This document shows, piece after piece, positions 14,946-64,000 of a stretch of DNA of 64,000 nt. This DNA is from Botryllus schlosseri (taxonomy: Eukaryota). The stretch covers positions 14,696,001-14,760,000 of the forward strand of contig CM119371.1 of NCBI GenBank assembly GCA_051294905.1, written 5' to 3'. Each line of letters opens with the position of its first letter. Position 1 is the stretch's first letter. The notes beneath the pieces were generated by a model that saw only the letters and a list, made by a program, of their open reading frames with translations, searched no databases and was not told the origin of the DNA. A program made the translations under genes and the position numbers.

Positions 14946-16313
14946 TCGTTTTGAAAACTGACCACCACACCGGTCAATTTGATATTTTTGTATATTGTTA
15001 CAACGAACAGTGACAAAATATACACCAACAACGACTCCGATACATTTGTGTAATCGCATACTCACTTGTTCTGGTGCATCCCATCAAAATTGACGGTTAG
15101 CCACACACACACACACACACAATAACAACGCGCTATTTCGATATGACGGCGGTGTCCGGGTTCGTGCTTTAGATTTTCCAGAATCAATCCGTCTGAAGTT
15201 GTAATCCCGCGACTTTGTTAACTGGTTGATACACGCATAACAATCTTCGGAAAATGTGGGAATGCATGCTACCCATTGTGCGCACGATTCCAGGTTACTT
15301 GTGATTAATTTCCTTGCTCACACTATACAGATTATACGTACAGTGATATGTAGCGGTAATCGGTTTGGTCAATACATATCGCCCCATTTAGTATGGAATT
15401 ATAAACCCAACACAGGTCAGTCCATAACCGGATCCGGATATTCAATGCAAAGCGATAAAGCAGAACCAATGACCAAATGTAATTAAACATGTAGATTCAC
15501 AACCCTTGGTTTTTTTTTTCGTGAAAAATGACAATACATATCGAATATATTTCACGAGAGTTCAACCCTACCAAGTATTCACGTAAATGTGGTTTATGAC
15601 ATTACATACAATGTGTCGGTGTACAAATGTTGGGTGTTTATGCACACATCGGTATGACCTATAGACAACATCATCATACCCTCCAGGACTTCGTTATTGC
15701 ATCGCGAGTTCAATAAAATCAATTTTGTATATTCAATCGGTGGCATAGACGACGGAAGGCTTGGAGATCCAATGTAAAATTCAGACAAACAAACGGGTAT
15801 ATTTGTCCGTCTTGGTTATGCACTCAACTACCATTGGTGCTCTCGATACAGCGAACGGTACAGTATGCAACGCATATCATTATCAATATTTCGTCAATAT
15901 TCCGACTAGCCCACAACCTTTGCAATTGATGATCAAAGTCTACCGTTGGAAGAATCGGACGTGACATTATCTCTGATGTGTTCGCCGGAGCACATAGCCT
16001 ACATCCATTGGAGCCCAATTGGTTATTGCTTTGATGAAGTCCGCCAATTGCGTAATTCTATTTTGATATCTGTAGAGTTGAATCACGGGATTCGGCTTTG
16101 GTATGGCTGTGTGTAATCCTGTAAGTGGGCGCTAACATCGATCATTAGCTTTATTGTCGTACCAAAACAATTCAGAATAGCTGGTGCGTTTGAGAGAAGT
16201 GTATGCGTTCGCGCATTGAAAACGTGGCTATAAGGCAGTCGTTTGCTAATATTCCGTGTCCCGTAGAGATAATCAAATACTTATTAACTTACGTGCAACC
16301 TTAACATTTGTAG

Positions 16314-20700: not shown

Positions 20701-23700
20701 CTATGGGGGCCCAGGACCAACGTTTTGGGGGGGGGAGGCTGACGAAGTGCTGTTACGGCCCTGACTATTATGTACTCATCGTTTTAAAAGCTCCGAAGAT
20801 ACCAACAAACTTGGTGAGTTACGTGACTGATTCATCGGTTGAGCTGTCGTGGGATCCCATTTGCATCGGAGATTATCGTTATGACGTAGAATATGCAAAA
20901 TTGCTTGGCGGAACAACTGCAGGTCAAGACCACACAACAGTCGCGGTATACACGAATGCGGTGAGTACTGAGTAGGCATATATGTGGATTTGCTACTACG
21001 CAGTTGCGAGATAGTCATAATCACTAAAAAAAACTAGGTGGAATGGGTCCTACAGCTTTGTAACAGAAGCTGGGCGCGACCGTTCGAATAGTCGAATGGA
21101 GTAGCTGGAGTTGATATTTTCTATTGCCGAAGTTATGACCCTTCCGTCTAGGAATTGTGTTTGCTGTAACGACGCTTATATCGCACCGTGAGACTATATC
21201 TAAGCCATTTTGATTCCATTGTTAGTGAATGGTTGTTACTCCGACTCTCTGATGTAATCGCATAATGATATACTTACTTAAATACAATTTTCTGGTCTTC
21301 TTTCACTGCGTGTGACATCTTAGTTACTTGTATTAGACTGTTCAGCTCGATACTAAAACTGGACTCAAAAAGAAGGAAGGCATGTCAAAATATATTAGCT
21401 ACCATCTTTCACCATCTGCATCGCCCAGTTGTCATGGCAATTTTTCATGCGAAAGCGATACAAATCTCCCCACGTACTACGCTCTACTATTGACAAAACT
21501 TGAAATATATAAATGAATTATGTTTGCTGCGGAAACTGTCGTTGAAGTAGAAGTGGCAGTGATCTAACACGAAACCGCTTGAGTAAGCTAAGTAGCAAAA
21601 TTGCACAAAACTTACTTGAGTATTTCGCAAATAGGATTAGGCTACTTCGTAACTGACCAAGTGACCATTCCTGACTGTTGTGGCTAGTTTCGATCCACTA
21701 AAGTCAAATATTCGTACGGGACAGAAACATTTCTTTGCTGATACAATGCATCTATTTACCAGATCGAGGTTGGTTCGCTGGAATCCGGAAGTTCGTACCT
21801 TTTCCGGGTGAGATCATATCACGGCGGAGTTTTCAGTGCGGCCCAGGCTGTCGAGGCCTCAACACTCGCGACATCAACAACAACAGGTCTGTGAAATGTG
21901 ATAGGGTGAAGACATCGTACGAGAAATCATGGTGCAGATGTTGACTGTTGTGGTGGTAGGTCGTGTGCAGTAGCGCACTCGGGAAAGGTTGGTTTTCGAA
22001 ACCGAAACCGCGACCTTCTGAAACGCCAATTACATCTCCAATATGTAGAAGCAATGTGTTTAAGCGACTGGTATTACGCTGTTGCGTATCGGTCGAACAA
22101 TTCGATGACACTTTCCAAGGTGTAGCGGTGAAGCCTCCCATTTGTGAACTGATGTCTGAATGGAAACAGTAGAAGTCATAGTGATTTTCGATAAATATTC
22201 ATTATAATGTTCTATTTAGTAAAATGTTTTCGTTCTTTTAACACTCTGTTGATTAACCTGATGTACAGTTCATTTTATACACCAGTAATCTATGGTGATG
22301 TATTAGATGTCTAGTTAGATGTGGATTGCGGTAGATTTTTGTTCTTATGACTCGTCGAAAATTTCGGGTCTACGAAGGCTTGCAGTTTAGAGTAACTGTT
22401 CCGCGGGTTGGTAAAGATTAAGAACCACTGATCTATAAACAGAGGGAGTGCAAGTGCTCGGCGATGGTAATCAAATAGAAGTAGAATCAACGCCTGATTT
22501 TTCAACTCCATTACAAGTTGCCATTTCCAAGGCATGTTAACACTACTTCAAGTGGGAGTACAATATGATTGGTATTAAAATCACTAGGGTTTACCTTACA
22601 CAAGTTAGAATTACGGAAAGTTTTTGTTGCAGTTAAATACGTGGAAAGTTGCACTTATTATTCACAAAAGTTGCATTTATGGACAGGTTCCCTGAAATTT
22701 TTAGGGTATGAGCAGAGGTGGTCCGTAACGAAGTACTTCTACTTTTTCGAAGTACTCAAGTAGTTTTCCTCTACTTCTGGTACTTACTCAAGTAGATCTT
22801 TTTCCCGATACTTCTACTTTGTAATATTTTGTGAACTATAATTACTTACTTTACGCTATTTTCATTTTGTCAAGTAGAAGTAGTTTAATCCCCCAAGAAG
22901 ATAGCCAAAGGAATTTCTGGGCTGTTTTCACGTAGTACCAACATTTAATTTTCAAGTCATGTAATACCAAGCATTTTCGTTGTGCTTCGCGCCAATGTTC
23001 CCTCTAAGCTGCGCACGTGCGCAAATGCGCAGTGCTGAAACGGTCTCTGCGCACAGAAAATCAACGCTACGCACAAAAAATCAGAAATGATGTTTTTTTT
23101 ATAGTTGTTGCGCACTGTTGTCCAATGGACCGCGCAGACGCGCAGATTCGTGAAAATTAAGATGGAACATTGCCAGGGCCAAATAGTGTTATCACTGAAG
23201 TCTGAAACCGAAGTACATAAGTGCGCCCTGCAAAGGTAACTATTTGCGCTCCGTGAAGAAATGAGAGTTCACAATCACCTGCGCCTCAAGGCAGATATTT
23301 TTTTTAGTATGGCCTCGTACACGTGAGCGATACTGATATCATTTCATTAGCGCATTATTTGCTGGGAATGGGGAAATAGCATGGTTTAACAAAGTTATAA
23401 ATAACAACGGGCTAGCTCGAAGTTAATCTGCGAGAAACTAACGAATGATAGTCTTCTCCGCGTGGCATGGACATTGCGTAAGATTTACTCAGGACCGTAA
23501 CTTTCGCACCCCAAACCCCCCAATTGGAGGGGCCGAGCTCGAAAGGGGTCCAAAATTATTTCGAGAATTAACACAAATCATGGTGTATTTTTTGAAATTT
23601 TTCAGGAATTTTTTTTTCGCGCTACGCGCATTTTATTATTCTAAGATATCTGATTATTGGGCACCCTTTCCCAACAAAAATTAGGCATGATTAATAGAAA

Positions 23701-26700
23701 TGGGCAGTTGGGCGTCGGCCATTATCGCACCATGACGCGCCAAGACATATGAAGTTGAAGGCTATGTAACATGCGATTTCAAGGAGTGCGCCAGAACGAT
23801 CAGCAGCGAGAAAACCTTGGGCGAAAAAGACTGCCCTGGTGCTGACCGAAAACTTCGATATATACAAATATATGTGTAATTGTCAGGGCTGTGGAGTCGG
23901 AGTCGGTGGAGTCGGAGTCGGGTCGATTTTCGCTTGATGGAGTCGGAATCGGAGTCGTGAAAACTATAATAGCTGGAGTCGGAGTCGGTGGGAAAATACT
24001 GACTGACAGTTTGTGAGAATGACTATGACTTCGACTCCGACTCGAACTTCTCTATCATGAAAACATTTGCTTTCAAAGAATTTTCAATATAATTTTTATG
24101 TACCACCAATCACTTTTAAAATTAACCATACAGATCAGGCGCGGCCAGCCTGTGGCACGCAGGCCAAATTTGGCACACGAGAAAATTAGGTGTGGCCTGC
24201 GAGGTAATTCTCGAAATTATTTACGACATCAGGTACAATTGCAAGGCCAACCAAAATTTGATTAGCATGACCGCGAAATTTGATGATGACTAAAACAACA
24301 GTTCTGACGCATTGACGTATCCAGGGGTCAGCCACATTTATCCCATATCTTCGTATATGACCATGAAGTAGAATATTTCATAGCAGATTTATTTGACTTG
24401 AAATTTTTCTCGGTACTTCGCATGATTCATTGTCGCTAGATTTCTTGCATTCAGTATTTGAGCCCCTTCTGAAAATTATAAATACATATAATTCACAGAA
24501 TTGAGTCTATTTATATTCTCAATTAGGAGATACGGCTTCGCTTGTGCACTCGCAGCGAGATCGTCGACAAAACATTTGCACAAAATGATAGAGGCATGTT
24601 CACTGACACCGTCGATTTTGCTGTCTAAACGTCGAGACGGGGTGTCCGAGAAAACAAAGAATTAGTATCGCATTATTTCCATCTCAATGCTATTATTTAC
24701 ATCCCATGATGTGGACGACTGCTTATTTTGTCAAAAATTGACACCTCCTGAGATGTATCAATATGAATCAAGCTCTCTACCCCTTCCTAATAGCTTCATT
24801 TGCAGCTTTTGACAGTCCATGCGAACGAATTACGATCGTTTTCACAATTACTTACTTACTTGAGTAGATTTAAAGTCAGTCAATTCTACTTCAAGTAGTT
24901 TTAGGTTGCTTATTAAAGAAGTACTTCTACTCGTACTTGAGTAGATTTTTCTTCAATACTTCTACTTCTACTTGAGTAGCTTTCTTGACTACTTTGACCA
25001 CCTCTGGGTATGAGATACCGGAATGGTTCCGTATCGAAGTCACTCCGGCAAAAAACCAAATGTTGGCGACACCAACATAATCAAAATCCTGAAAAAAGTG
25101 ATCCAGTGAAAATATAATTTCTGGCGGACTGGCCTGAATGTACGTCTAATCAAAAAAGACCTCAAATTTAAACGACGGTGAAATAATCAAGCGATCTATT
25201 TACATAGAGTGCCAACTATTTTCCAGTTGCATGAAAAATAGAAGAAAAAAAACTTGCAAAATATTGCATGAAAATTGAAAAATGTTGCAAGATTCCTTCA
25301 AGCAGTTTGAAACACAATACTACACAACTTCTGAGTATTTAGGAAGCTGCCAGAAGTTGTAAAAAAAGTTGCAAAAGTTGCCAAGATTGCCATTAATAAC
25401 ATAATGCATTTTGCAGTTAATCGGAGATGGGTACCTTCGAAATTGCAGGTTGCGTCTGCTGTCTGCACGGCTAACGCAAAATCACTAATGACGATGCAAA
25501 TAGGTAGAATCCTCGAAAATATGTTCTGTTAACGTGATACAAAGGTATTTCACGCGATTCTTAAAAATGATGAAAACCTTTCCCAAAAGTACCATCTGCT
25601 TTTAAAATCAAAATTATAATAAATTATCAGTTTTAGCAGAGTGGAATTTGTAAATGCTACCGGGCGAGTCATGTGATTGCTTGTTAATATGGACTTTGTA
25701 TTATGGGCCCTTGATTCATGGTGCGAAATGACTTGGTAGTCGGTGCACCAATTTCCCCTTATTCAACCAACCAACCACCACTTCATGTATGAAGGATTCC
25801 GATCTGGCAACCTGCATACATACGGTTAAGTCAGTAATTCCTACAATCCCATTCCAGGGGCAAAGTGCTGGGTGACCGACAGGTATTTCGAAGCTGAAAA
25901 CTACTTGAAGACATGTCCTAATTCCGGTGACTGGTGCTTCACGCAAGCCGAATACTTCGCGAATACTTCGGAACGGTATTATATATATGGTTCGTCGTGT
26001 CAGTACACGATTGGCGCAAATATTTTGACGAGTTGTTCGGCTGTGTTTTGATTTTTTCAAGTCGAAGTAGAAGTAGCACCATAAATTTCTACTCAATGAC
26101 AAGTAGCAATAAAATTAGCAATTTCGAAGACACGCCAAACTAGAAGTAGAAGTAGAAAATGATGATCTGAAATGTACTCGAGCACGTATGTCTTAAAAGT
26201 AGATTTGGTAGTTGGTTGCATACTTTTGACAGTTAATCGGAAATAAAAAATATTTTTTTTTATCAAATTAATGCACCACGATATGGTGATATGAGGAGAA
26301 GATAAAAAAGTGGTGCCGAAACCCCTTGTTTGTTTGTGGTATTCATTGTGTTTGTCGACTACTGTGATTTTTCACACCAGGCCGATATCGGTAAGGCTTT
26401 TCTAGACACCGCTTACTCGGATGAGCTGGCGAGGAGCGTAGGTAAACTTCCAATATTGAGGTATCGGAATTCTGAAGTAGGCCTCGGGCGGACTCGAACC
26501 CGCACCCATTGGTGTTGCAGTCGCGAATTATACCACTGCGCTATATTGCCAGTCTCTGAAGCGACTTGCAGCAGTCTATTATTCAGACACCCCCTTTGGT
26601 CTACAGCGTGTATAAATAAGAGGCAAGCACAGTGTATTTGAAAAAGGATAACATAAAAAGAATCAAGATGATCAGACACGCTACGAAATTTATACTGTGT

Positions 26701-44636: not shown

Positions 44637-46256
44637 ATGGTACGAGTTGTACGTCCTGATGTGGAAAAGCACGCAGTTTGTATGATGGCTGAATTGCATC
44701 GAATGAAGCAAGATACCGATCATTGTGATTTTTTAATTCAAGTCGGAGATGACGTCTATCGTACCCACAAAAACGTATTGTCGGCTGGCTCCGCTTATTT
44801 TAGAGCTATGCTTAAACACGACACGAAAGAGAGTCGCGAAGGAAGGGTCGTTTTCAAAGACGTTGATTCAGAGTGTGTAAAAAATTGCATCGATTTCATA
44901 TATTCCGGTGAATTTGAGATTCCTGATGGAAGTATCGTTGAACTTCTTCACGTCGCAATTATGATGCAGCTGGAAGATGTAAAGCAAGCCGTGTCCAATA
45001 TTTTGGCGGATTCACTTACTATTGAAAATTATTTCTCTACCAGAAATGTGGGTGATATTTATGGACTGGCTGATGTTTCTTCGAGATGCAAAATATTTTT
45101 GCTCGAAAATATCTTGGATATCTCAAACCAACCTGGATTTGAAAGCATTGAAAAAGATGATCTGCTCACTCTCTTTAAATCGGAAGGATCGAAATTATGC
45201 GAAGAAGAAAAAATTGCGTTATCGCTCAAGTGGATCGACAAATGTCAAAGTAAAAGTGAATTTTTGCACGAATTTCTCAATGTAATCAAGTTTCATCTAA
45301 TATCCCTGACATATTTGCAACAGATTTTAGAAACTCACCCCCGTATAAGCAACAACTTGGAGTTGTACAAGTTATTCACTGGACATATTCTGAAAGCTTC
45401 CGTCAATGTCAAAGAGGATAATGACGCTGATAAATTGTTGATTTTTTTTGACTATCGTGAACAAGGCCTCCGATCCTTTAATCCGAGAACAGAGGAAATA
45501 GAAAAGTTTCATGATGCGAAGTGTGATTTCCGTGCATTTTTCACAGCGATATCACATGACTTATATATTTATGTCTTTTGTGAAACTAAATCAGTTCATC
45601 GGCTCAACTTTCGTGACAAAAATTCAAGATGGGAGAAGATGAATGATATGATTTGCGACCACGGTATTACTCCAAGCTCAGTTTGTTCAACCGGATCCAT
45701 AATCGTTATTGGAGGAAGTGGTTTTACAGAGAGAGCTGATGTTGAAAGATTTGACCCATCTGTGAATCAATGGTTTCTACTGCGAAACAAACCGTCAGCC
45801 ATTTCTAATGCAACTCTCGTGTCATTGGATGGTTCCATTTACTGTGTCGGAGGTTGGTGAGATGATGTCGAAGTTCCTTCGTTCTGCAGATTCACTCCAT
45901 CCACATCAGAGTGGGTTGATCTCGAGCCAATGAGATATCCTGCTCATAGCTGTGGTGTTGTTGCAGTTGATAAAAAGGTATTTGTGACGGGTGGGTATAG
46001 TCGAGAACAGACTGTCAACAAGGTAGAATGTTACGATGTCACTATAGCTCAATGGACTTCATTGCCATCTATGAATTCATATCATGGCATCAATACTGCT
46101 TATCGCATCGGTAATTGGATTTTTGTAGTGGATGTATATAGCGATTCTGATGTGATTGAGAAGTACGATTTATTGAGCAGAAAATGGTATTGTATGAAAA
46201 AACGTGATGAACTACTTTATCCCCGCGGATCTGTCATGGTGATGGAATATGGTTGA
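44637..46256 (+). pseudogene. BTB-BACK-Kelch paralogue 2 with an in-frame TGA at 45858-45860
   Basis: ORFs 44637-45860 and 45930-46256 share a frame. The sequence reads GGT TGG TGA GAT where paralogues have GGT TGG CGA GAT; otherwise it is full length. Confidence 0.9.
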
Positions 46257-48806
46257 AGGAGGACGCGGTATATTGTAAAGTGAACTAAACACGTCTGTGA
46301 GTAGATTGATGTTTAAACATGCTTTGCTGAACATGGAATAAGTCTCAGTTGTGCTGAAGCTTCAAAATGATGGTTGATTGTGTTGAAACGCCGTTTTGTT
46401 GCAGTATAGTCTGGTTGTACATCTACTTGGAGACTTATTCTTAGAGTTAGAAAATTAATATTTGTTTATTGGATAATGACCATTCGTCGTTGCAGCCGAT
46501 TGGTCTAGCAAGCATCTCTGATTATAGCGCAAGTTTTTGCAACTTTCTTACAGCTTCCGGTTGCTTCCTAAATTCTCAGAATTTATGTTGTATGATGTTT
46601 TGAGCAGTTGAAGGAATTTTACATTGCCGCTTTTTGTATTTTTCCATGCTACTTTTTACTCCAACTTTTATCAAGTATTGATAACGTAAAAGGATGATTT
46701 TAAAAACATGCGATAAAACTATTTCTAGTATGGATCTCTCTTTGATCTATGTGATTGATTAGCTGCATCTCAATGTTGTCTATGACACAATGGCTTGTGA
46801 ACTAGAAGTTCAACAACCCGTGCTAGGCACGACAGTGTCTGAACTATATGTAAATATCTTGCTTGATTGATTCACCCTCGTTTGAATTTGAGGCCCTTCC
46901 CCATTTGACAGACGCCCATGCGAGACCGCCGAAAATCACATAATCACTGGGCCACCTTTTCAAGCTGTTGATTTTGTTAAAGTCGCGAACACTGAGTTTC
47001 ACTGCAATGCCTTGGGTTAGGTTATCTCAGCTAGGGGGATTGGGATGTGGTATTTGACTTGTTGTATGGGTTATCGATTTGCTTTTTGCGGAAAGGTATT
47101 CACGTTATTTTCTTGCTGCTTCACCCGGCTGTAGCTGACAGCGAAAAGCTGTCATATAGGTTACAAACTGAAAGAACATAAAAGTGTATGCATGATCAAT
47201 TGAAAGTCAACACAACAGGATTTCTCGTACAAATCTTAGAATATAAGAAGATTTCTAGTCCAGTAATGTAACTTGTGTTCTGTAGAAAGTGTCCTCCTTT
47301 CCGAATTCCAAAATATGGTTCGGTAACCCTAAAATAAAAGTAATGCAGCAAATTTGTACTCAACGCGTCATGATCTCCCGCTAAAATGTGTATTCATTTT
47401 TACTGCAAATGGAACGATGATTTGTAATTTGAAATGCTTGCATATCGCTGGTGATCTGATGTGCAAATAATATGGCTTCTTTTTGTCTCTTCGAGTTGCT
47501 ATAGTATGTGCATGAAAGTGGAGCTTATACTGGCATTATATACATCAAATACGCGAGTTCATCAAAACGGTGAAGCTTGTATGATCCATGTATGATAGGG
47601 GTTTCCGCATCCTACTTAACTCTAATAAATGGATGCTACCATGGTAAATTTGGAGTGGTATTACACCTGTTTCATTAATCCCCGTTCTTCTCGCCTGGGT
47701 AAACTGTTATCGTAATTTTGTCACCATATATAAGCGACTAGGTTATTGGTTATATTGAAAACTTGCAAATCGGTGTAAAGGTAATTATTTAGCATTTACA
47801 TCACTTATTTGTGAATTCCGCCGCAGTATGATGTCACCTGTTTTTGATGTCATCGATCCCACATTCCTATGGAAAATTAGCGTTCGACGCTTATGTAAGA
47901 TGGTGATAAATTTTGAAATCGCAATATGTATCCGCACGACTAACGCAAAATGACCAATGACCAGGCATGTTTATTTTTGACATAAGCAAAAAATCCAACA
48001 TAGCTTATTTTCCAGATTTTATTTTTGGCAATTTTGGCGTCGCCCTGAAATCATGTTTGTAGGCTTCAATTAATCATGTAAAACGCTTTTGTTTAGGTTT
48101 TCTTATCTTTGCCATCACTCAGCAAGACTAAAAACCGAAGAAATGACGATATTTGAGAGCAAATTCATCTGATAGAAAACCGACTACTTCTGCCATATCT
48201 GATCTCAATAGTTGACTTGCTAGTTGCTACGCATGCAAAATTACGGCATTCAGACAATACACTATACCACTTGTGATAGTAACTCGAGAGGGTTTTTGGC
48301 ACGTTTGGATCACAGCATCCACTGCCAAATGAATAGTTAGAAACCACGGGTGTCTTCAATACTCAGTGTATTATTTAAACTTAGTCTATTATTTAAAAAA
48401 TTCCACCGGGCAAAGTAAAATCAATCAATGAACTTGCCTCCATCATTGTTGTTGCTTATTGTACAGCTAACTAAATGCAGGCTAAATATTTGGTATTTTC
48501 CGTATTCCTGTCCTCATTCAGTCAGATGTTTTGTATCACCAATATGTTGATCAGGGATATCCCTGATGTTGGTGATTATGTTCGATCCTTATATTCAACT
48601 GGTTTCCTTCAGAAACTTTCATTGAATGTCTCTGCAATTTTCGAAAAATGTATGATTGTGTTCCACTGTAGAGTTATCATTCAATATATATTAACGTGGT
48701 TGGTTACCAGCAGTTATCGATATAGGTTATTTTGGCGATGTGAATGATTTGTGTGTACTTTGACTCTAATCATGTGTATTTCAAAAACAGCGCGATAGTC
48801 TTCAAT

Positions 48807-50914
48807 CATAGTGTCCTATATGGTGTCGACACAAGCAAATCGCACGGCTCAATGAAATTGTATCACGTCACAGTTTCCATTTGGCCACAGGCAATTTGAC
48901 GGTGATTTTTAACCGACTTGCCGAGCATTAAATTTGATGAATCGGGTATCGATCGAAAGCTGACGCTGTACTGCTTGCGAAAATATAAATTTTATTCCAC
49001 TCATGGCCCTGGAACCCCCACAATCTGCCCCAAATTATTCATTGTCCAGTAGATTGGCAGTGTGACGCAACAATGCTGTCTGGCGAAACGAGAGACTAGC
49101 TCAAGAGCAAGGATGCGGCCGAGCGGCGAGAGTGGGATCAGCTGACGTCGCGGCAATAGCAATGTGCAACCGCGCCACAGAGAAACGCAGCGCTGTTGAT
49201 ACTTTTTCTATGCGTTTCGGTACAAGCGAGCACACACCAGCCTTTCCTTGACTTGTAAGGGTAGAACTGGGTCCACAGAATGTATTGGGGCCCTACCAAT
49301 TTTCGCGCAATATCCTTCAGCTGATAGAGATATGTAGGCTACGTCTAAGTAGTCTACATTGGATATGTCAGATTATTATGATATCGATTGCCTTAGCCCT
49401 GCTTGTTGCGTAGGGCTCCAGAGACACGTCGCGCTGTTGATGGCGGGTGTCGATACTTTCTATAGTCGCTTTTATGGTTAAGTGTGAGCAAGGAGCATTG
49501 AGCATGAGCATACATTACAAGCTTTTATTTGATCCGTATGGGTAGGACTTGGTCCGCGAATGCAGCAGGTAAAATGTTGATTGTTGAATAAAGTTTAACA
49601 GCAGGAGTGTCGAATTAAACTGGTATCGCTGTCCGGATTCAATCCGTTACTAGAAAGCTTGCGGGCCATACCTGCCAAATGATTCCAAAATGTTACCACC
49701 AAATTCATACCTTTGTTTTTCACTGGAATATATCTGATATCACTATAAACGTTGACGTTGGAATTTGGTTTAGCATTTTTCAATCACCAAACAGTTTTTT
49801 TGAATGCCGGGGACCTTTTGCGTCAAAAGTAATACAGTGGTATCACATCACAGATATTTGAATTATATTCATTCTGTAGCCTGTATATATATTCCTAATG
49901 TAACTTACGTAAAACGGATTTGCAGTATTTTTTTGCATCTGTGAATAACTGAATGTCCATTCGGCCCAACAGAGTTTGCACTTTTTCGCCTTCTCGGAAT
50001 TTGGCAAGGTCACCGACGTGGTGCTTATGGGGAGTAGAGTGAAAACTCAACACTGTAGTTGTATTAGTACAATATGATATTTTTACATTATCTAAATTTG
50101 CTGTCTTGAGGGAATCTTATTACTTGAAAGTATATTTTTCTTACTAGAAATATCTCTAACAGCTGAAGGATTGCGCGAAAATTGGTAGGGACCAAATAAA
50201 TTCTGTGGACCCAGTTCTACCCTTACAAGTCAAGGAAAGGCTGGTGTGTGCTCGCTTTTAGCGAAGCGCATAGAAAAAGTATCAACAGCGTCACGCATCT
50301 CTGGTGCCCTACGCAACAAGCGGGCTAAGGCAATCGATATCATAATAATCTGACATATCCAATGTAGACTACTTAGACGTAGCCTACATATCTCTATCAG
50401 CTGAAGGATATTGCGCGAAAATTGGTAGGGCCCTAATACATTCTGTGGACCCAGTTCTACCCTTACAAGTCAAGGAAAGGCTGGTGTGTGCTCGCTTGTA
50501 CCGAAACGCATAGAAAAAGTATCAACAGCGCAGCGTTTCTCTGTGGCGCGGTTGCACATTGCTATTGCCGCGACGTCAGCTGATCCCACTCTCGCCGCTC
50601 GGCCGCATCCTTACTCTTGAGCTAGTCTCTCGTTTCGCCAGACATCATTGTTGCGTCACACTGCCAATCTACTGGACAATGAATAATTTGGGGCAGATTG
50701 TGGGGGTTCCAGGGCCATGAGTGGAATAAAATTTATATTTTCGCAAGCAGTACAGCGTCAGCTTTCGATTGATACCCGATTCATCAAATTTAATGCTCGG
50801 CAAGTCGGTCAAAAATCACCGTCAAATTGCCCGTAGCCAAATGGAAACTGTGACGTGATACAATTTCATTGAACCGTGCGATTTGCTTGTGTCGACACCA
50901 TATAGGACACTATG
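48807..50914. mobile_element. P/Galileo-like foldback element, ~630-bp TIRs, 7-bp TSD
   Basis: CATAGTGTCCTATATGGTGTCGACAC..; arms 48807-~49440 and ~50281-50914 are nearly identical in inverted orientation; TSD CTTCAAT at 48800-48806 and 50915-50921; extra repeat unit at ~50150-50290. Confidence 0.93.
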
Positions 50915-50953
50915 CTTCAATATAGAAATATTCTTGACAAGTGATTGGTGTCC

Positions 50954-52576
50954 ATGATGCAGGTTGTTTGTCGAAATGTGGCAAGGCATGCTGTGAGGAT
51001 GCTCGAGGAATTACATCGAATGAAGCAAGATGATGATCATTGTGATTTCATAATCCAAGTCGGAGATGACGTCTATCGTACACACAAAAATGTGTTGTCG
51101 GCTGGTTCCGCTTATTTTAGAGCCATGTTGAAGTATGACACGAAAGAGAGTCGCGACAGAAAAGTTGTCTTGAAAGATGTGGATTCTCAGTGTGTGAAAA
51201 AGTGCATCGATTTCATATATTCGGGTAAATTGGAGATTCCTGATGGAAGTATCATTGAACTTCTTCACGTCGCAATGATGATGCAGCTGGATGACGTAAA
51301 GCAAGCCGTATCCAATATTTTGGAGGAATCTATCACCATTGAAAATTACTTTTCTACCAGAAATGTTGGTGATATTTACGGACTGACGGATGTTTCTTTG
51401 AGATGCAGAATATTTTTACAAGAAAACATCATGGAAATCTCAGATCAAGCTGGATTTGAAAGCATTGACAAAGATCACCTTCTCGGTCTTCTGAAGTCGG
51501 GAGAATTGAAATTATGGGAGGAAGAAAAGCTTGCATTATCGCTCAAGTGGATCGACAAATGTCAAAGTAAAAACGAATATTTGCACGAATTTCTCAAAGT
51601 AATCAAGCTTGATCTAATATTCCCGGCATATTTGCAACAGATGTTAGAAACTCACCCCCGCATAAGTAATGACTCCGAGCTGTACATGTTATTCTCTGGT
51701 CATATTCTGAAAGCTTCCGTTAAGGCAAAAGAAGACAATGACGCTGATAAATTGATAATTCTTTTTGATGGTGACACAAAATGCCTCCGATCCTTTAATC
51801 CAATTACCGAGGAAATAGAAAAGTTTCATGGTGCAAAGTTTGATTTCCCAATGGGTTTCACAGCGATTTCTCTGGACTCATATATTTATGTCTTTTGTAA
51901 AGCTAAATCCGTCCATCGACTCAATTTTCAGAGAAAAAATTCAAAATGGGAAAGAATGAATGATATGATTTGCGACCATGGTATTGCTCCAAGCTCAGTT
52001 TGTTCAACAGGGTCCATAATCGTTATCGGAGGAACCGGTGATACAGAAAAAGCTGATGTCGAAAGATTTGACCCATCTGTAAATCAATGGTTTCTACTGC
52101 GACACAAACCGTCAGCAATTTCCAATGCAAGTCTTGTGTCATTGGATGATTCCATCTATTGTATCGGAGGTTGGCGAGATGGAATCGAAGTTTCTTCGTT
52201 CTGCAGACTCACTCCATCCTCAGCAGAGTGGGTTGATCTCGAGCCCATGAGATGTCCTGCTGATAGATGTGGTGTTGTTGCAGTCGATCAAGAGATATTT
52301 GTGACGGGTGGGTATGGGTATAGTGAAGATGATATCTTCCACAATGTAGAATGTTACAATGTTACTTCAGCTCAATGGACTTCGTTGTCATCTATGAATT
52401 TACCTCATTGCATCAATAGTGCTTATCGCATCGGTAATTGGATTTTTGTAGTCAATGAGTTTTGGGAATCTCATCACATTGAGAAATACGATTTATTAAA
52501 CAAAAAATGGTGTAACATGAAAAAAAAACCAAGTCATTTGTTCGATGTTTGCGCATCTGTAATGGTGAAGCTATAG
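50954..52576 (+). CDS. BTB-BACK-Kelch paralogue 3, single coding exon
   Basis: Intact ORF with the same domain motifs; first ATG at 50954 (the track start is a TTG). Confidence 0.93.
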   Translation: MMQVVCRNVARHAVRMLEELHRMKQDDDHCDFIIQVGDDVYRTHKNVLSAGSAYFRAMLKYDTKESRDRKVVLKDVDSQCVKKCIDFIYSGKLEIPDGSIIELLHVAMMMQLDDVKQAVSNILEESITIENYFSTRNVGDIYGLTDVSLRCRIFLQENIMEISDQAGFESIDKDHLLGLLKSGELKLWEEEKLALSLKWIDKCQSKNEYLHEFLKVIKLDLIFPAYLQQMLETHPRISNDSELYMLFSGHILKASVKAKEDNDADKLIILFDGDTKCLRSFNPITEEIEKFHGAKFDFPMGFTAISLDSYIYVFCKAKSVHRLNFQRKNSKWERMNDMICDHGIAPSSVCSTGSIIVIGGTGDTEKADVERFDPSVNQWFLLRHKPSAISNASLVSLDDSIYCIGGWRDGIEVSSFCRLTPSSAEWVDLEPMRCPADRCGVVAVDQEIFVTGGYGYSEDDIFHNVECYNVTSAQWTSLSSMNLPHCINSAYRIGNWIFVVNEFWESHHIEKYDLLNKKWCNMKKKPSHLFDVCASVMVKL

Positions 52577-53399
52577 ATCACTGGTTTTTAAACTGTATGA
52601 TACACCAATCTTAGGTGGTTGTGGCGTATTCTATCGTGGTCTAGAAATTTATGTGTATTATGTTTAAACATTCATTCTTGAAATCGGAATAAGTTAACGT
52701 TGTGTTGAAACTTCAACGTTTTTGGCAATCTGATTTGAAGCTACTTTGTTGCATCAGCAAAAATGGTTGTATGCATTATACTGAGTGATACGGTAGCTTA
52801 ATTCATTCAGAAAATTGTGAGTTTTGAGTTAACCCGCAATATATGCAAGAGATAATATTAGTGACGGAATTTGTTCGTTAACTTTGAAAAATTTTCGCGG
52901 TTAATACCTTCGTTACTACATATAGAAGTCGAAATATTGCCATAACTTTCCAAGACATGGCAAAGCTATTTCAAGCGAAACAAGAAAATGATTGCTCTAG
53001 AACAGTGAAGTCAGTGCATTTTCAAGGGGTCAGTGAAACCTCCAAATTTGCAAAATGGTTGATGACAGAATCTGTATTATTTTTAATCAGAGAAATCACG
53101 AGGCGGTTTTGCATCGTTACCGCAAAAACTATAAGACTCGCATAAACATAATTGCAGTCTGAGATAGAATATTCAACTCTACAAACTCATTTTAATTGCC
53201 AATAGCTGATTGGTACAAACATATTGCTGTTTAGAGTTGTTCTGTTAGGATTTTGGTAGAAATCTGTTAACAGAAATTCATTTTCTTTTGTTTATACGTG
53301 CTGAACAGAATGACTTCTAGATGAGCTGTTGAATAAAAATGACTAGGGTGGACGGTATATGTTCACTAAGAATCTGTTTCTCAATCTTGGTGCCATGTA

Positions 53400-54222: not shown

Positions 54223-55575
54223 TAAGTTGTGATCATACCCAAAGGTGTCGTCGGAAGCGTTACTGGTTTATTACACTCGCCACCACCACCATCTTTCAGC
54301 ACTCGTTCATATCCAATCGATGGCGCAAATTTTAAAGACACGACCGCCTATTTCAAGAAATGCAACCACAGAATTCGCTTTGAAATGAAAAAATTTCTAC
54401 ATAGATAGTATTATGTTATTTTCAAGAAAAGTCGTTTTGATGCTGTTTATCACAGTGTCTACAGTTGAAGGGGCAATGCACTCTAAAAATGATGTGGTCT
54501 TAAATTGAAGGACAAAACAAATGAAAATTTTTGGCCGCAGCCATTTATTTCAGAACGCCACCGTAATGGAGCTGCAATTTATTGAAATCTCCACTGGGGT
54601 CTCACGCTCCAGCAGTCACGCAGAGATCGAACTTTATATAGTTGTCAGCCGATGTCATGAAGGAAATATGTCATAGACGCCAAGGTGGTTTAGATACTCC
54701 GTTCAACGGAAGATGTCCAGTCAGGAGATTTATGTCAAAATCGGGCCTAGTGTCTTCTATTTCTTTAGGACAGAAATAGAACATGTCCTATTCTTATGTA
54801 TAAAACATTGTTTATGTAGAAACACATTTGAGTATGCTAAAAAAGGAGCAGTAGCCTACTTTGTTACAGCTGATATCTGCTAACGTCATTCTAAGAATGC
54901 CTCCGTCAATATGAGAAATCTTTGAAATATTACTGGATTGCATTAGGCAGAGAGCGGATGAGATTTTCTCCATCCACTGTTGACACTATCATATCATAGA
55001 ATCTTGGATGTTGTCGCTTTTTATGGTTTCATGCTTTACTGTTCTATATGTTGACTGCCTAATAATTTCCTTCACTTATCATTCATCTCTGTCAGCTAAT
55101 TATTGCTGTCGATCATAGTCGCGATAATGTTGAACCACCGTTCTTTTTCGTACACTTGCTTCAAATTAGTGGTATAAGTCTGTTAACGTCACTCTTCTTA
55201 TATTTGCAACTGCAATTTTATGTCTTATATGTTTTTGTTTCCGCAGGAATAAAATTAGTGATAGTCTATTGCTGGATTGCGTCCTAGTTCAGCTGTTTGG
55301 GTGGGATTATTCAAAATGGTTATTCAAAACAAATTTTTGGGATTGTTGGACAAGATTCTCCTGATCCAAATGGATTGTCCTTCGGATACTGAGCTGTCGG
55401 ACAAATTCAGATTCTTGAAAATGAAATTTTGCTCAACACACGGACAAGAGCCAGTTTCATACAGAGCATGAGGTTGGTTTTTGCTAGAACTCTGGTCATT
55501 ATGATTTGGCGACTGTGGTGGAGGGATCATCCAAATGTCAGATTTGACCGTTTTCTTGTCATTTGTGATGTCAAT

Positions 55576-58314
55576 AGGCCTTTTGCAGGACTTCGATCAC
55601 GTGACTAGATACGCATAGCAACAACAAATTGGTTAGCAAGCTACTTTCTCGCGCACCTGCTTCAGTGCTAAATATCGCAAAGTGTACTGTTCATTTCTGG
55701 TTGTGAACGTTTCGGAAATTTGTTGTAGAAGTCATCTGAGATTTACCTATGCTAGATGTCAATCCTGTACAAAGCACATAGAATGATATCGTCAGAATTA
55801 CGTAGAAATCCGTCGTTAACGTAGCCGTATTTCGGATACAGAATATAATCGTTTTCGGGCTGTAAACGTTCGCAAGTGTCATGGAGATGCGCAAGGATTC
55901 AAATATGTTGGGTGTCTTTGATTCATGAACTATGTGAACTCCTTGCGTCAAAATGATCGACATTGTAGCCGTTATTTGGTAGTCAACTATGATTTTATGA
56001 CACAAAATTCGACATTGCAGGATATTCACTGCGTGATATTTATTGCAGCATTAAGTTAGGTGTGGATAGTATACTATAGTTGTATTGTAGCGGTAGTTGG
56101 TAATCATTGCAGCATTTTGATGATTGATATCGATTGCAATATATATAGGATACTGCTATTTTTAAGCCTAAGAGACAATGACTGCCAGTGCCAGTACGTT
56201 GATGTGTTATGAAGTCATGCAATGTGCTACATACCATATATACATTAAATATCCTAAGCTATTGTATGACTTCTCAGTTAAACAATTCAAAATATTTAGA
56301 CCTCTACACCTATATTACAAGTTATTGATCATTCTGTCATGCTGCCAAGTGCCACTACCCGAAGGAAAATGATCATGAGCTCCAATTGAGGGTGAAACAA
56401 ACTGTCCCGGGGCCTGGATTACTTGATTGATTGCCTGGATTGGATTACTTCACTCTATGGCACAGTGCAAATATCTTGAGTTTCAAGACATATGGCTATA
56501 CCACATGCATACGAATTAATGATCTGATGGATTATCCCAAGAGAGCCGAACATAGGCAACTAAGAAATTGATGATGCCCTCGTCAAGAATTCAGCCTGGA
56601 TCCAATTATTATCACCACATAAAATTTGGTCATGCGGTGGAAGGCAGCGTGGTTTCATGCCAACAGAAAATGTCAGCAGATGATCTGACCACTGACTAAC
56701 TGTCCTGAACTTCTTTCCCGATGTTGATGTCTGCTTTGAAAATGATATTTCATTTGTGTACAGCAAGACAGGCGCTCTTCCGTGGATGCTATGAATATGT
56801 CAAGACAAGTGGCTATGGAGGTAGAGGAAAATACATTGGCATAACAGTCTCGGTAGTTATTGAACTTGATAAGGTTAACATCCATTTTTCTTCAACTATT
56901 TCGTGTGCTCTGGGTATCGAATGCACAAAAATTAATAAATCGATCTTCTTTGCAAGTTTATTTGTAAATTCAATGAATCAAAGAATATCATAAGTTCAGA
57001 ATATTACGGAGTCAATGCGAAAGAAACAATGTTAGTCGTCTTTAGAGGATGTTTCTGAGTTGGTTGAGCCAATACATAGAGGGGGTCAGCAACGAAGTAC
57101 TATTTTACCTGAATACTAGCGTCATTATGAGTTTAGGCTACTTCCACTTCTACTTGACACTTTTTAGGTAGTACTTTTTTGTCAACTAGAAAGTAGCTTT
57201 GGCGCATGATTGCATCCCCTTCAAGCGTGAGGTTGTCATAGCAACTGGGCAAAATAGCCCCAGTACCACGGTAACTAAATTAATTTTTGAACATTGCACT
57301 TATTTGTGGTGTCATCACCCTTTTGCGTTGATCAAGAAGATGCAACATGCAATGTTTACAGTTGTCACATGGCATCAATTTCTAAAACTAAGTGACCCTC
57401 AACCAAATCTAATTCATGTAACGAATTTCTTGACCGCTTTTCAGAAATTCATTTCTACTTCCACTTGAAGTACTTTGGACATGTCCTGGAAGTAATTAGT
57501 GCTACTTGTACTGGAGTATAAATTAGGGCATTACTTCTACTCGGTTCCCAACAATGACCACGTTGACCACGTCTGGGTATAGGATGACCGATCTTGTCAC
57601 TGCGTTTGAGCTGCTCTAAGAGTTATATGATAGTTACTTCCCTTAGTTGGCTAAATATCGCACATATGTGACATCAACTATTTATCAAAATCGAGTGTGA
57701 TTTGCCAAATCCACTTCAATCGCAGTTGCGAAGTAGTGGTAATAAAATTGGCATTGTATAAGGCAACAGTAAAGTGCACTGATTTGCTTAGTCTTGACGG
57801 CAGGTTCTCCCAAAAGATACTTCCGATGTGTTCAGCGACATTTGTTTTATAGCAGCACGCCAGCACCCAAACCAGCAGACAGTATATCCTGATCCTTGCG
57901 GGTCCCGGCTGCTTCAGCCATATCTTCCATCCAAAATCAGGCTCCACAACAGACAAATAGTACTGCTTGAACTAACAAATACTCTTACCAGAATATAAGC
58001 CAATTGCTTTACTTCAAATGCATAAATTTAAGTACATATGATCAGAGTTGAGTACCGTAATACGACTAAGTTACCGATGGATATCTGCGTAATTCTGACG
58101 ATATCATTCTAAATGCTTTGTACAGGATTGACATCTAGCATAGGTGAATCTCTGATGACTTCTACAACAAATTTCCGAAACGTTTACAACCAGAAATCAA
58201 CAGTACACTATGCGATATTTAGCACTGAAGCAGGTGCGCGAGAAAGTAGCTTGCTAACCAATTTGTTGTTGCTATGCGTATCTAGTCACGTGATCGAAGT
58301 CCTGCAAAAGGCCT
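55576..58314. mobile_element. ISL2EU-like DNA transposon remnant, ~240-bp TIRs
   Basis: AT|AGGCCTTTTGCAGGAC...GTCCTGCAAAAGGCCT|AT in a CAATTG site. Weak internal remnants: TC..WIIPR and EVEENTLA*QS on +, YCC..C..LKWI on -. Nested hAT fragment at ~57077-57575. The element itself is certain; the superfamily call is tentative. Confidence 0.75.
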
Positions 58315-58789
58315 ATTGTTGGCCATAAGTTGTGTGCACTGTTGACTCGAATATTCGAGTGAAGTTGAATCAGTCAAATTTCGCCCAGTCTGTCTCAATT
58401 TATTTGATTATTCATGTTTACTGTCAAAACATATTTTATGCCTGTTATTCTATTTCATCTAGCAAACACCTAATCAGTCAGTAGTGATCATGGTTTGAAT
58501 GGTGTGCTTGGATGCTGAAAATCACGCAGTGGCTTCCATATGACCAAATGAAAAGCAGAAAATACATTAACGGACCAAGTCAAAAAGTTTGGCGGCATCC
58601 TGCAGCGTATTAATTTTATTTCTTAATTGAAAGCAGTGAATAACAGTGTTAATACATGCTGCTCGTTCCCTCCCGAGCTGTGTGCATCTTGGTGAAAAAG
58701 CCTTGTTGTCGAGCAAAGCTAACAGTTCTCCAAAATTCGCCGCCCTTAATCGAGTGTCTGTCTTTGTGTTTTTGTCACAAGACCAGTGA

Positions 58790-59971
58790 CCGGACTTCTG
58801 GGGGCCTTGCCCCCAATCCTCCCCTCAGCTTATAAGTTTTTTACCTCTACTTATCATCTATAGGTTATTGGGTGTCCATTTAATGAGTAAGCTTTTCTCG
58901 GCTAACCGCGCGAAGCGCGAATTTTTTTTATAATTCATGATTGAATCGGTCAATAACATCGAAAATTTCATATATATATTGGTATGAATTTTTATCCTTT
59001 CTCTGCTCACGTAATCAGATTTACCGGTAGAGCGGATTGAGGTGTGTTTTAAAAGTTAGGACCACTGTTGGCAGGAACGAAGCAGCACTTCGTCAGGTCC
59101 CTAAAAAAACGAGGGTCTTGGGCTCCCATAGGGTGATAAACCGACCATCCCCCGATCATGTTGTTCGCTTTTACCACGAAATTAGTTGTACTATATAGTG
59201 AGCACGCGCCAAGCGCGAAAATGTTCAATAATTCATAATAAAATCGGTCAGTAAGATCGGAACTTGCATATGCATTGCTATCAATTTCTTGTCCTCTCTG
59301 CTCGCGTTATCAGATTTACCGGTAGAGCTGAGTGAGGAGTCTTGGAAACTGTAAGGCTCGTAAATAATAGGCTAATTAAACATCTTCAGGCGGACGGACC
59401 TGTTGGTATGACTTCGTTACATGATGTTATTTCGTGTCCTCCGCTATATCAAAAAATATATAATCGCATAAATGTACTAAACTAAAAGACGCACTCAATT
59501 TCAAATTGGTATTTCTTCACTGGCATATAATATTTCCCTGCGGGATGGTATTTGTGAAGATTGTGAGGTTCAGATTGCTAAGACAGGAACATTCGGCGTC
59601 AGTCATTTAGGCGCCTATGGACAATTAAACCTATACGTATCAGCATAAGCGTAGTTCTTTTCGGCCAAGGTTTTCTCGCTACAGATCATTCTGGCACATT
59701 TTTTGGAGTTGCATGTTACATGACCTAAAACTTTATATCTTGGTACGTCGTGGCGCGGTAATGGCCAACGCCGATATGCCCATTTCTATAAATCTTGCGT
59801 ATTCTTTCTTGGGTGAAGAGTACCTAATAATTAAGATATTCGACAACTTGAAATCTGCATAAATTTTCAAGAAATACTTTATAATTTATGCTAATTCACG
59901 AAATAATTTTGGGCCCCCTTCGAGCTCGCCCCCCCCAATTAGGGGGTTTGGGGTGCGGCAGTTACAGTCCT
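58790..59971 (-). mobile_element. Inverted copy of the 19445-20763 hAT family
   Basis: Reverse-complement homology along its length, ending GGGGTTTGGGGTGCGGCAGTTAC. Confidence 0.85.
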
Positions 59972-61130
59972 TCCCAGAGTATAGATCACTAACCTATGGA
60001 TAGATGGGCAACTTAGTAGCCTAGTCAGTGTTGTCACACTTGAATTCCCAGACAAGCCTCCTGCTGAGACAGCTAAAAGCAGCATAATTGGTCATGGCCA
60101 TGGCCATCCTATAGTTGGCCAGGCCGCTCGAGCGCTCAAATTTAACAATACTGATCTTAATCGAAAGCTATTGTTGCCCTGATTCCGAAAATACAATTTA
60201 AATGCTGGTCAGAAAATCGGCATTGTTCCGAATAATCGCTCGACATAATTTCCATTATCATGTTCAATTGGTCATCGTGTTGCGGCACTCCGATTGTTAG
60301 GAACAATTGGCCTTGACGGCTATTTTGGAGTGGTTCCATTGGCATGTTAACATATTCGGAATCAGCGCGACACTATCTTTCGATTGAGACCAGTTTGATT
60401 AAATTTTAGCTCACGGGACGCCAGCTATAGGACTACCAATTACGCTGCTGTTAGCTGGCTGTGTACTGTACACTGTGCACTGTGTGCAGCTGCAGCCTCA
60501 TTTTGCCGCCCCCTTGGAGCCTGCCGCCCCTGGCGCAGAGCCAGAACCGCCAAGTGGCTGCTACGCCACTGGTATGATCTAGTTGTACATGTGGTATTTG
60601 ACTTGTTGTATGTGTTATCGCTTTGCTATTTTGCTTTTTGCGGAAAACTATTCACATTATTTTCTTGCTGCTTCACGCAGCCGTACGTGAAAAGGGAATG
60701 CACCAAATTCCTTAGGTCCACTGGAGCTGACATTGAAAAGTTGTCATGTAGGTAAAGTAGGTTACAAACCGTAAGAACATAAAAGTGTATGGATGATCAA
60801 CTTATACTTAGCTTATACTGCATGCATAGCATGATTAGCTTATGCTGGCATTATATACAGCAAATGCCCGAGTTCATCAAAACAGTGAAGCTTCTCTGAT
60901 CGATATATGAAAGGGATTTCCGCATGTACTAATAAATGGATGCTACCATGGTAAATTTGAAGTGTTTTTAAACCTCAATATTAACAAGATGGTTACTGGC
61001 AGTTATCAATGCAAGTTATTCTGTCAATACGAATGATTTGTGTGTACTTTGACTCTAATCATGTGTATTTTAAAAACAGCACTATAGTCTTTAATATAGA
61101 AATATCCTTGACAAGTGATTGGTGCCCATT

Positions 61131-62747
61131 ATGCTGGTTGTTTGTCACGATGTGGCGAGGCATGCTGTGAGGATCCTCGAGGAATTACATCGAATGAAGC
61201 AAGATGATGATCATTGTGATTTCATCATCCAAGTCGGAGATGATGTCTATCGTACACACAAAAATGTATTGTCGGCTGGGTCCGCTTATTTTAGAGCCAT
61301 GTTTAAGTATGACACGAAAGAGAGTCGCGACAGAAAAGTTGTTTTGAAAGATGTGGATTCTCAGTGTGTGAAAAAGTGCATCGATTTCATATATTCGGGT
61401 AAATTGGAGATTCCCGATGGAAGTATCATCGATCTTCTTCACGTCGCAATGATGATGCAGCTGGATGATGTAAAGCAAGCCGTATCCAATATTTTGGAGG
61501 AATCAATCACCATTGAAAATTACTTCTCTACCAGAAATGTTGGTGATATTTATGGACTGGCTGATGTTTCCTCGAGATCCAGAATATTTTTACTAGAAAA
61601 TATCATGGAAATCTCAGACCAAGCTGGATTTGAAAGCATTGACAAAAATGACATTCTCGGTCTTCTGAAGTCGGGAGAATTGAAATTATGGGAAGACGAA
61701 AAACTTGCATTATCGCTCAAATGCATCGACAAATGTCAGAATAAAATCGAATATTTGCACGAGTTTCTCAAAGTAATCAAGTTTGATCAAATCTCCCCAG
61801 CATATTTGCAACTGATTTTAGATACCCACTCCCGTATAAGTAACGACTTCGAGCTGTACAAGTTATTCAGTGATCATGTTATGAAAGCTTCCGTTAAGGC
61901 AAAAGAAGAAAATGACGCCGACAAACTGATAATTCTTTTTGATGATGTGGCAGAATGCCTCCGATCCTTAAACCCAACAACCGATGAAATAGAAAAGTTC
62001 CATGATGCGATGTTGGATTTCCCGGAGGAATTCACAGCTATTTCCCTGCACTCATATATTTATGTGTTTTGTGAAGCTAAATCTGTTCATCGGCTCAATT
62101 TTCGGAGAAAAAATTCAAAATGGGAAAAGATGGATGATATGATTTGCGACCATGGTTTGTCTCCAAGCTCAGTTTGTTTAACTGGATCCATAATCGTTAT
62201 CGGAGGAAGTAGTTTTACAGAAAAAGCTGACGTCGAAAAATTTGACCCATCTGTTAATCAATGGTTTCTACTGCCAAATAAACCGTCGGCCATTTCTAAT
62301 GCAAGTCTCGTGTCATTGGATGGTTCCATCTATTGTATCGGAGGTTGGCGAGATGAAGTCGAAGTTTCTTCATTTTGCAGATTCACTCCATCATCATCAG
62401 AGTGGATTGATCTCGAGCCCATGAGATATCCTGTATGTGAGAGTGGTGTTGTTGCAGTTGATCAAAAGATATTTGTGACCGGTGGGTGGAGTGAAGATGA
62501 GTCCCTCAACAATGTAGAATGTTACGATGTCACTTCAGCTCAATGGACTTCATTACCATCTATGAATTCATGTCATGGCAAGAATACTGTTTATCGCATC
62601 GGTGATTGGATTTTTGTAGTGGATGCATTTGACAGTTCTCATGTGATTGAGAAGTACGATTCAATGAACAAAAAATGGCATAGAGTGAAAGAAGCTGATA
62701 AACCTCTCTATCTCTGCGGATCTGTCATGGTGAAGGAATATGGTTGA
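61131..62747 (+). CDS. BTB-BACK-Kelch paralogue 4, single coding exon
   Basis: Intact ORF; first ATG at 61131; branch-like CTCTAAT and acceptor AAAACAG at 61079. Confidence 0.93.
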   Translation: MLVVCHDVARHAVRILEELHRMKQDDDHCDFIIQVGDDVYRTHKNVLSAGSAYFRAMFKYDTKESRDRKVVLKDVDSQCVKKCIDFIYSGKLEIPDGSIIDLLHVAMMMQLDDVKQAVSNILEESITIENYFSTRNVGDIYGLADVSSRSRIFLLENIMEISDQAGFESIDKNDILGLLKSGELKLWEDEKLALSLKCIDKCQNKIEYLHEFLKVIKFDQISPAYLQLILDTHSRISNDFELYKLFSDHVMKASVKAKEENDADKLIILFDDVAECLRSLNPTTDEIEKFHDAMLDFPEEFTAISLHSYIYVFCEAKSVHRLNFRRKNSKWEKMDDMICDHGLSPSSVCLTGSIIVIGGSSFTEKADVEKFDPSVNQWFLLPNKPSAISNASLVSLDGSIYCIGGWRDEVEVSSFCRFTPSSSEWIDLEPMRYPVCESGVVAVDQKIFVTGGWSEDESLNNVECYDVTSAQWTSLPSMNSCHGKNTVYRIGDWIFVVDAFDSSHVIEKYDSMNKKWHRVKEADKPLYLCGSVMVKEYG

Positions 62748-63369: not shown

Positions 63370-64000
63370 GGTTTAGTAAGTTAGCTTTTATCGCCTATAG
63401 ACACGCGAAGCGCGAAGATTTTCTTTAATTCATGATTGAATCGGTCAATATGATCGGGAATTGCTGCCATCAATTTTTATCCTCTCTCTGCTCGCGTAAT
63501 CAGTTTTACAGGTCGAGCCGAGGGAGGTGTGTTTGAAAAGGTAGGCCCCCTCAATAATAATTAAACATCTTCGGGCGTATACCCGTTGGCAGGAACGAAA
63601 CAGCACTTCGTCAGCCCCCCTAAAAATATAAAAATAAAAATAAACTTGGGCCTTGGGCTCCCGTAGGGTGATAAACATACCCCTATCACCTTGTTCGCTT
63701 TTGCCACGAAACTAGCTGTACCGTTCAGTGAGCCAGCGCGAAGCGCGAAAATTTTCGATAATTCGCGATAAAATCGGTCAATATGATCGGGAATTGCATA
63801 TATATTGCTATCAATTTCTTGTCTTGGCTGCTCACGTAATCAGATTTACCGGTAGAGCTGGGTGAGGTGTCTTGGAAACTGTAAGGCCCGTTAGTATGAT
63901 TCCGTAACATGTTATTTCGTGACCTACTGTCTGCTATATCAAAAAATATAGAATCGCCCAAACGTAGGCTTCTAAACTAATAGACGCGCACGATTTCAAG
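63370..64000 (-). mobile_element. Further inverted copy of the 19445 hAT family, running off the window
   Basis: CGCGAAGCGCGAAAATTTTC, CAGATTTACCGGTAGAGCTG and CAGCACTTCGTCAG blocks. Confidence 0.8.

Follow-up and report, generated by a model that had tools for sequence, protein, structure and literature searches.

Known P-type and foldback elements

Transposons of the P superfamily have ends of the form CA...TG, the inverted ends of 1360 are short, and elements of the Mutator and Foldback type usually duplicate about 9 bp of their target. Simmen and Bird are said to have described a foldback element in Ciona in 2000. According to the excerpts of the literature cited here, 1360 (1360/Hoppel/ProtoP), a member of the P superfamily, has the target motif GTTNAAC and a 7-bp duplication, the duplication of hobo being 8 bp (PMC3276498); 7-bp duplications are produced by both 1360 and Galileo (PMC3698922; PMC2775673), and Galileo has the target motif GTANTAC (PMC4168063). 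The arms of Galileo are 0.3-1.2 kb long and are lengthened by inner direct repeats, its copies with the longest arms are without transposase, two-arm copies are known, and long arms are described as convergent across superfamilies (PMC3573991), with several THAP sites lying within the Galileo arms (PMC3688188). Ascidians are already among the known hosts of the P superfamily through the elements of Ciona intestinalis (Kimbacher et al. 2009, cited in PMC3698922), which can be likened to the family described below at the superfamily level only. A literature search that left most subscription papers outside found nothing on ascidian P elements with their terminal repeats and target duplications or on tunicate foldbacks, and the family may therefore be described already; the terminal consensus words are in none of the papers listed, and there was nothing relevant on Botryllus kelch genes among the matches listed.

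Structure of the element

The window, which is the whole stretch of DNA that was analysed, covers 64,000 nucleotides of the Botryllus schlosseri contig CM119371.1 (positions 14,696,001 to 14,760,000, forward strand), and all positions are counted from its first letter. The element and its parts are as follows.

48800-48806, + strand: left copy of the target duplication, CTTCAAT, 7 bp, exact
48807-50914: complete element of the non-autonomous foldback type, 2108 bp, bounded by CATAG...CTATG, the right end backed by contigs and RNA reads
48807-49441, + strand: left inverted arm, 635 bp
49442-50149, no strand assigned: spacer, 37% GC, longest stop-free frame 80 aa
50150-50303, + strand: direct duplication, 91% alike to right-arm positions 50388-50543, offset 238 bp
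50281-50914, - strand: right inverted arm, 634 bp
50915-50921, + strand: right copy of the target duplication, CTTCAAT, 7 bp, exact

The element begins CATAGTGTCC and finishes GGACACTATG. The original prediction of near-perfect arms of about 630 bp and a 7-bp target duplication is borne out, with only 9 mismatches between the arms across the outer 593 bp (7 transitions and 2 transversions), perfect identity over at most 124 bp at a stretch, and 1 gap and 5 further mismatches in the inner part of the arm up to 49441. Duplication lengths of 2-12 were checked at the focal element and a match was found at 7 only, the chance of seven identical letters being ~8e-5. Paired as a duplex, the outer 593 bp of the arms have a predicted energy of ~-1177 kcal/mol. 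The two arms may already have differed before insertion.

The right end contains a directly repeated piece of 156 bp, and the spacer has no similarity elsewhere within the window. There is no transposase frame in the element, the longest stop-free frame being that of 80 aa in the spacer; among 17 stop-free frames of at least 50 aa, two cross the ends and were left out, and the other 15 gave chance-level matches in Pfam, with a best E of 0.034, and Rfam gave 0 matches at E 1 across 46500-53200. Five AATAAA or ATTAAA hexamers lie on the sense strand of the element. Counted without a control, a 7-letter THAP motif has 7 occurrences in the element and 1 in a sister copy described below, all of them more than 100 bp away from an end.

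The element is a gene-less, non-autonomous DNA transposon with terminal inverted repeats, of the foldback type. An assembly artefact was considered as well and is ruled out by the exact 7-bp duplication, the differences between the arms, the paralogous empty site and the independent contigs that end at 50914.

Sister copy and abundance of the family

A second copy of the family is found within the window.

6521-7177, no strand assigned: sister copy, 657 bp, 77-78% alike to the arms, with its own 7-bp duplication ATATTAC

This copy is almost wholly palindromic (z -25) and has the ends CATAG...CTGTG. A 7-bp duplication is thus present in 2/2 copies within the window, and 8 bp fits neither of them.

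Four public runs, one of DNA (X1), two of raw RNA (X23 and X21) and one of unrecorded kind (X5), were aligned at 85% likeness to positions 50310-53200, a stretch which takes in the right arm, the gene and its 3' flank. In the DNA run 164 contigs run out of the arm precisely after 50914 and continue in flanks that vary (agreement 0.39), and the summed depth over the arm is 2e5-7e5 as against ~8 for exact single pieces, a depth that is not equivalent to copy number. Divided by 31 to allow for overcounting, the excess over the arm is still several hundred-fold or more (>800-fold). The element family is therefore high-copy and dispersed in the host genome. A metagenome scan with a 26-letter end of the element gave 0 matches.

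The original prediction treated the element on its own and was in this respect incomplete, as it overlooked the 156-bp direct duplication, the sister copy and the membership of a high-copy family that is likely to belong to the P superfamily. Because the element belongs to such a family, the insertion would be an ordinary event.

Classification

The ends of the element and of its sister copy both fit the CA...TG form. The flank consensus of the 164 X1 contigs begins GTTTAAC, which agrees with 6/6 specified letters of the 1360 motif at a chance of ~3e-4 per site, this consensus being a column-wise majority and not a count of paired duplications. Partial fits to the motif are seen in X21, where the consensus begins GTGGTAC, and in X5, where it begins ATGTAAC; that of X23, ATTGCAG, falls outside the motif, has an agreement of 0.82 and likely stems from one locus. 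Of the two duplications in the window, CTTCAAT at the focal element has 4/6 letters of GTTNAAC and ATATTAC at the sister copy has 5/6 letters of the Galileo motif.

Likened by description, without a comparison of sequences, the element shares with Galileo of Drosophila an arm length within the published range, an inner direct duplication, a 7-bp target duplication, a target preference of the GT-n3-AC type and copies that are made up of two arms and a spacer. It is unlike Galileo in the phylum of its host, in a target nearer to GTTNAAC than to GTANTAC, in being without a transposase remnant and in abundance, 191 copies being annotated in D. willistoni and far more being present here, judged by depth. 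With 1360/Hoppel/ProtoP it has in common the duplication length and the motif that the X1 flanks reproduce, but its 635-bp arms are unlike the short inverted ends of 1360. The family is likely to belong to the P superfamily, of the 1360/Galileo type, and the best reading of the focal element from its sequence is a two-arm, Galileo-like copy with a 1360-type target, which we would not file as Galileo proper.

Under the Repbase rule formal membership requires that an autonomous element share the ends, and Repbase includes hAT families with 7-bp duplications (the portion of PMC4455052 that bears on this). As no autonomous partner has been seen, the placement in the P superfamily rests on the ends and the target motif, and a small doubt persists because of those 7-bp hAT families. 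It would seem very improbable that the element is instead a hAT of this kind, or of the Mutator/Foldback type, with the effect on the gene remaining as set out below. Such a reading draws on the 7-bp hAT families, on the convergent nature of long arms and on the fact that a transposase is not seen in the element; however, the X1 flank consensus is the 1360 motif, 7 bp is the length that 1360 and Galileo make, and the duplications of hobo are longer, as those of Mutator/Foldback elements usually are. With the P superfamily as the likely placement, the locus adds a long-arm family with a 1360 target motif in a sea squirt.

Insertion site and Kelch paralogues

The element lies in the leader of a gene, and the features of the gene and of its empty counterpart are as follows.

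48766-48790, + strand: candidate site of cis or trans splicing, with branch point CTAAT and 3' acceptor AAAACAG, in a stretch conserved among paralogues 2, 3 and 4
50922-50953, + strand: remaining leader with possible bypass acceptors, AG 50925 and AG 50941, and no ATG between them and the start codon
50954-52576, + strand: Kelch paralogue 3, a single open frame of 540 aa, BTB-BACK-Kelch
61049-61133, + strand: leader of paralogue 4, the uninterrupted (empty) counterpart

In paralogue 4 both flanks are joined around a single copy of the 7-mer (CTTTAAT), as had been predicted; the left flank, 48701-48811, aligns to 60990-61099 at 86% and the right flank, 50915-51050, to 61089-61224 at 93%, and the empty site is that of a paralogue and not of an allele. 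The prediction also placed the 2.1-kb element between a splice acceptor and the ATG, and here the element and its place are confirmed, whilst the acceptor comes from conservation and not from RNA. The pattern TAATCATGT..TA.TT..AAAACAG is common to paralogues 2, 3 and 4, with CTAAT lying ~21 nt 5' of the AG in paralogues 3 and 4, and the AG at 48789-48790 would on this basis serve as the acceptor.

The insertion appears to be young because the arms differ by 0.015, set against a dS of 0.26 between paralogues 3 and 4 (dN 0.11). The frame of paralogue 3 is intact, in agreement with the prediction, and this is at best mild evidence for continued function: if the arm divergence dates the insertion, a neutral frame would have escaped nonsense changes with a chance of 0.43-0.66, and with a chance of 0.03-0.18 once an indel rate drawn from a single event is added. 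The Kelch array does lose members, since the frame of paralogue 2 is broken by a stop at codon 408. Depths over the ORF in X1 run from hundreds to thousands and agree with an expansion of Kelch genes. The proteins of paralogues 3 and 4 have no exact sequence match in the protein collection that was searched. A protein similarity search gave 5 matches, among them one relative at 51% and, at 21%, a KLHL26-like protein from an oyster.

Neither a filled nor an empty junction allele was seen in any run across 50310-53200. Among the 24 loose ends listed, out of 896, none is at 50915, where an allelic empty site would end, and the X1 contigs over 50973 and 50975 carry paralogue-4-type letters in 12/12 cases. 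Exact pieces of paralogue 3 are present in X1 at 51578-51765 and 52583-53062. The locus is a clean example of mobile DNA striking a member of a large Kelch array, which is the kind of event that is to be expected.

Effect on the gene

It is probable, in our estimation, that a P-type gene-less transposon was moved in trans into the leader of paralogue 3 and that the output of the gene has been lowered as a passive side effect. A THAP-DDE transposase encoded elsewhere would have cut and pasted the element, which would have entered the leader just 5' of the start codon. A transcript spliced at AG 48790 would have 31 upstream ATGs, five hexamers and the 593-bp stem ahead of the start codon, and early termination or poor translation would be expected because of these. 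The 31 ATGs lie between 48791 and the start codon, and no frame opened by them extends over the main ATG; the one at 50912, which is the last, is formed by the end of the element and opens a 10-codon frame with a stop at 50944. Folding of the first 170 nt 3' of the candidate acceptor is no stronger than that of shuffled sequence (z -1.16). What protein remains would stem from transcripts starting or spliced near the right end, at AG 50925 or 50941, and the reduced output of paralogue 3 would be tolerated; the loss is likely to be tolerable because many paralogues are present, as the stop codon of paralogue 2 suggests.

The RNA runs were read in part, 6% of X23 and 3% of X21, and their donors may lack this haplotype. 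Only 14/417 of the reads laid in X23 and 16/622 of those in X21 are at least 99% alike, and 61 and 83 reads respectively pass at 50914 from the arm to other flanks; the arm reads in these two runs derive mostly from other loci and the Kelch reads mostly from other paralogues. None of the reads listed in X23 or X21 lies over 50973 or 50975, the depth of X5 is nil there, and the bins 52541-52831 are empty in X23 and X21. At the 25 ORF places listed, letters unlike paralogue 3 make up 192/201 in X23 and 119/130 in X21, these being places that were picked for differing (40 of 505 listed). A reading of these counts as proof of silence was rejected on account of the choice of places, the 6% and 3% of the runs that were read and the possible absence of the haplotype from the donors.

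The run of unrecorded kind, X5, has an arm-to-ORF depth ratio of 3.1, which is like that of the RNA run X23 (2.6) and unlike that of the DNA run X1 (251). It contains exact paralogue-3 pieces at 51578-51794 and 52153-52375 (lengths given as 221 and 223 nt) at a depth of ~5, in segments where 29-39 letters set paralogues 2 and 4 apart from paralogue 3. The pieces suggest that paralogue 3 or a nearly identical allele, whether carrying the element or not, is transcribed at a low level, and they may also come from stray DNA.

A different outcome, which we regard as unlikely though deserving of some weight, is that transcripts bypass the element by starting in the right arm or by cis or trans splicing at AG 50925 or 50941, such that expression is near normal and the hairpin is absent from the mRNA. 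In the section of the work cited, trans-spliced genes of Ciona have 3-4 acceptors on average, and many of the minor sites are no more than 50 bp away from the major site (PMC11155486), and nearby AGs would be usable for this reason; two AGs 3' of the element have no ATG behind them, the ORF is intact and exact pieces occur in the RNA-like X5. However, the likely branch point is now 2.1 kb 5' of these AGs, no read listed in X23 or X21 and no depth in X5 covers 50973 and 50975, and the sole pile of read starts listed (50743, 6 molecules, X23) is among reads that come mostly from other copies. Lowered output as a side effect of the insertion is the reading that we continue to favour.

It had also been proposed that a transcript spliced at 48790 would carry a very long hairpin with upstream ATGs and could feed the editing of double-stranded RNA. 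The ATGs and the stem are there, the duplex is predicted to be very stable, and such a transcript is not in evidence. Changes of A>G/T>C (36/32 in X23 and 40/28 in X21) show no excess over C>T/G>A (32/34 and 37/40), and with 41/41 against 40/54 in the DNA run as a control they are not commoner in RNA; these counts are pooled over arm and ORF, come mostly from other copies and make a weak test. It would seem very improbable that the mRNA retains the giant 5' hairpin, that editing or dicing acts on it, and that it serves as a selected silencer or switch of paralogue 3. In favour of such a role are the stability of the stem, the presence of arm sequence in the RNA runs and the rice Ghd2 sMITE, which in the part of the account cited is an inverted-repeat DNA transposon in an untranslated gene part, in that case the 3' UTR, and depends on a Dicer-like protein to repress translation (PMC5338036); that element is a short one from a plant with a tested function, whereas inclusion in the mRNA is putative here. 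Against it are the few reads at or above 99% likeness, the reads that leave 50914 for other flanks, the missing A>G excess, the five polyadenylation-like hexamers inside the element and the fact that there is no sign of selection on the focal copy. Lowered output as a passive side effect is still preferred, and nothing so far points to the insertion having a role in regulation.

Finally, there is a broader version, which we would hold to be a long shot, in which an abundant Galileo-like foldback family outside insects switches members of a rapidly evolving BTB-Kelch set on and off, with a polymorphic insertion whose leader hairpin of ~600 bp silences paralogue 3 in carriers. If carriers do make a hairpin-bearing mRNA with measurable silencing, the dimorphic site together with the adjacent paralogous control would allow long 5' hairpins to be tested in nature, in a chordate that trans-splices leaders. 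Small RNAs would, in such a case, perhaps also silence other element-bearing transcripts.

Upstream regions of paralogues 3 and 4

The region upstream of paralogue 3, the Kelch gene whose start codon lies just behind the focal foldback element, is already disturbed, since two stretches 5' of the gene, one of ~0.3 kb (47200-47521) and one of ~1.0 kb (47669-48687), are missing from the corresponding region of its Kelch neighbour, paralogue 4. The longer stretch has ATTAA at either border and carries no terminal inverted repeat. Paralogue 4 may also possess a small leader exon at 60670-60760, with an acceptor-like TCACGCAG and a donor-like AG/GTAAAGT; the paralogue 3 counterpart of this interval (47120-47170) is without the GTAAAGTAG piece and without a CAG at the corresponding place.

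Kelch paralogue 2 and the letters at 50973-50975

The neighbouring Kelch paralogue 2 (44637-46255) is likely to be a young pseudogene, with an in-frame TGA at codon 408 and the remaining frame open. At 50973-50975, near the start of the paralogue 3 ORF, all 12 of the contigs from the public DNA run X1 that reach these places carry paralogue-4-type letters, exact paralogue-3 pieces nevertheless being present in the same run further downstream; the pattern may stem from gene conversion, from the presence of another allele or simply from a gap.

Other repeats in the window

Several repeats accompany the focal element:

6521-7177: sister copy of the focal family, MITE-like, 657 bp, palindromic over almost its whole length, 7-bp duplication ATATTAC
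55572-58318: second inverted-repeat element, ~2.7 kb, in the interval that separates paralogue 3 from paralogue 4, 264-bp arms (95%)
19446-20680, 23489-23876, 58800-59971 and 63371-63999: dispersed repeat family, ~1.2 kb, both orientations, 70-80% alike
14218-14947: minisatellite, 41/83-bp period, ~17 units

The second inverted-repeat element has no relation to the focal foldback family; its termini read as GGCC inside a TA duplication, and there is no long frame within it. Inner repeats are present in the dispersed family. Another common repeat begins 3' of paralogue 3, at 53016-53200, where depth is high and loose ends are shared in X21, a raw RNA run, and in X5, a run of unrecorded kind.
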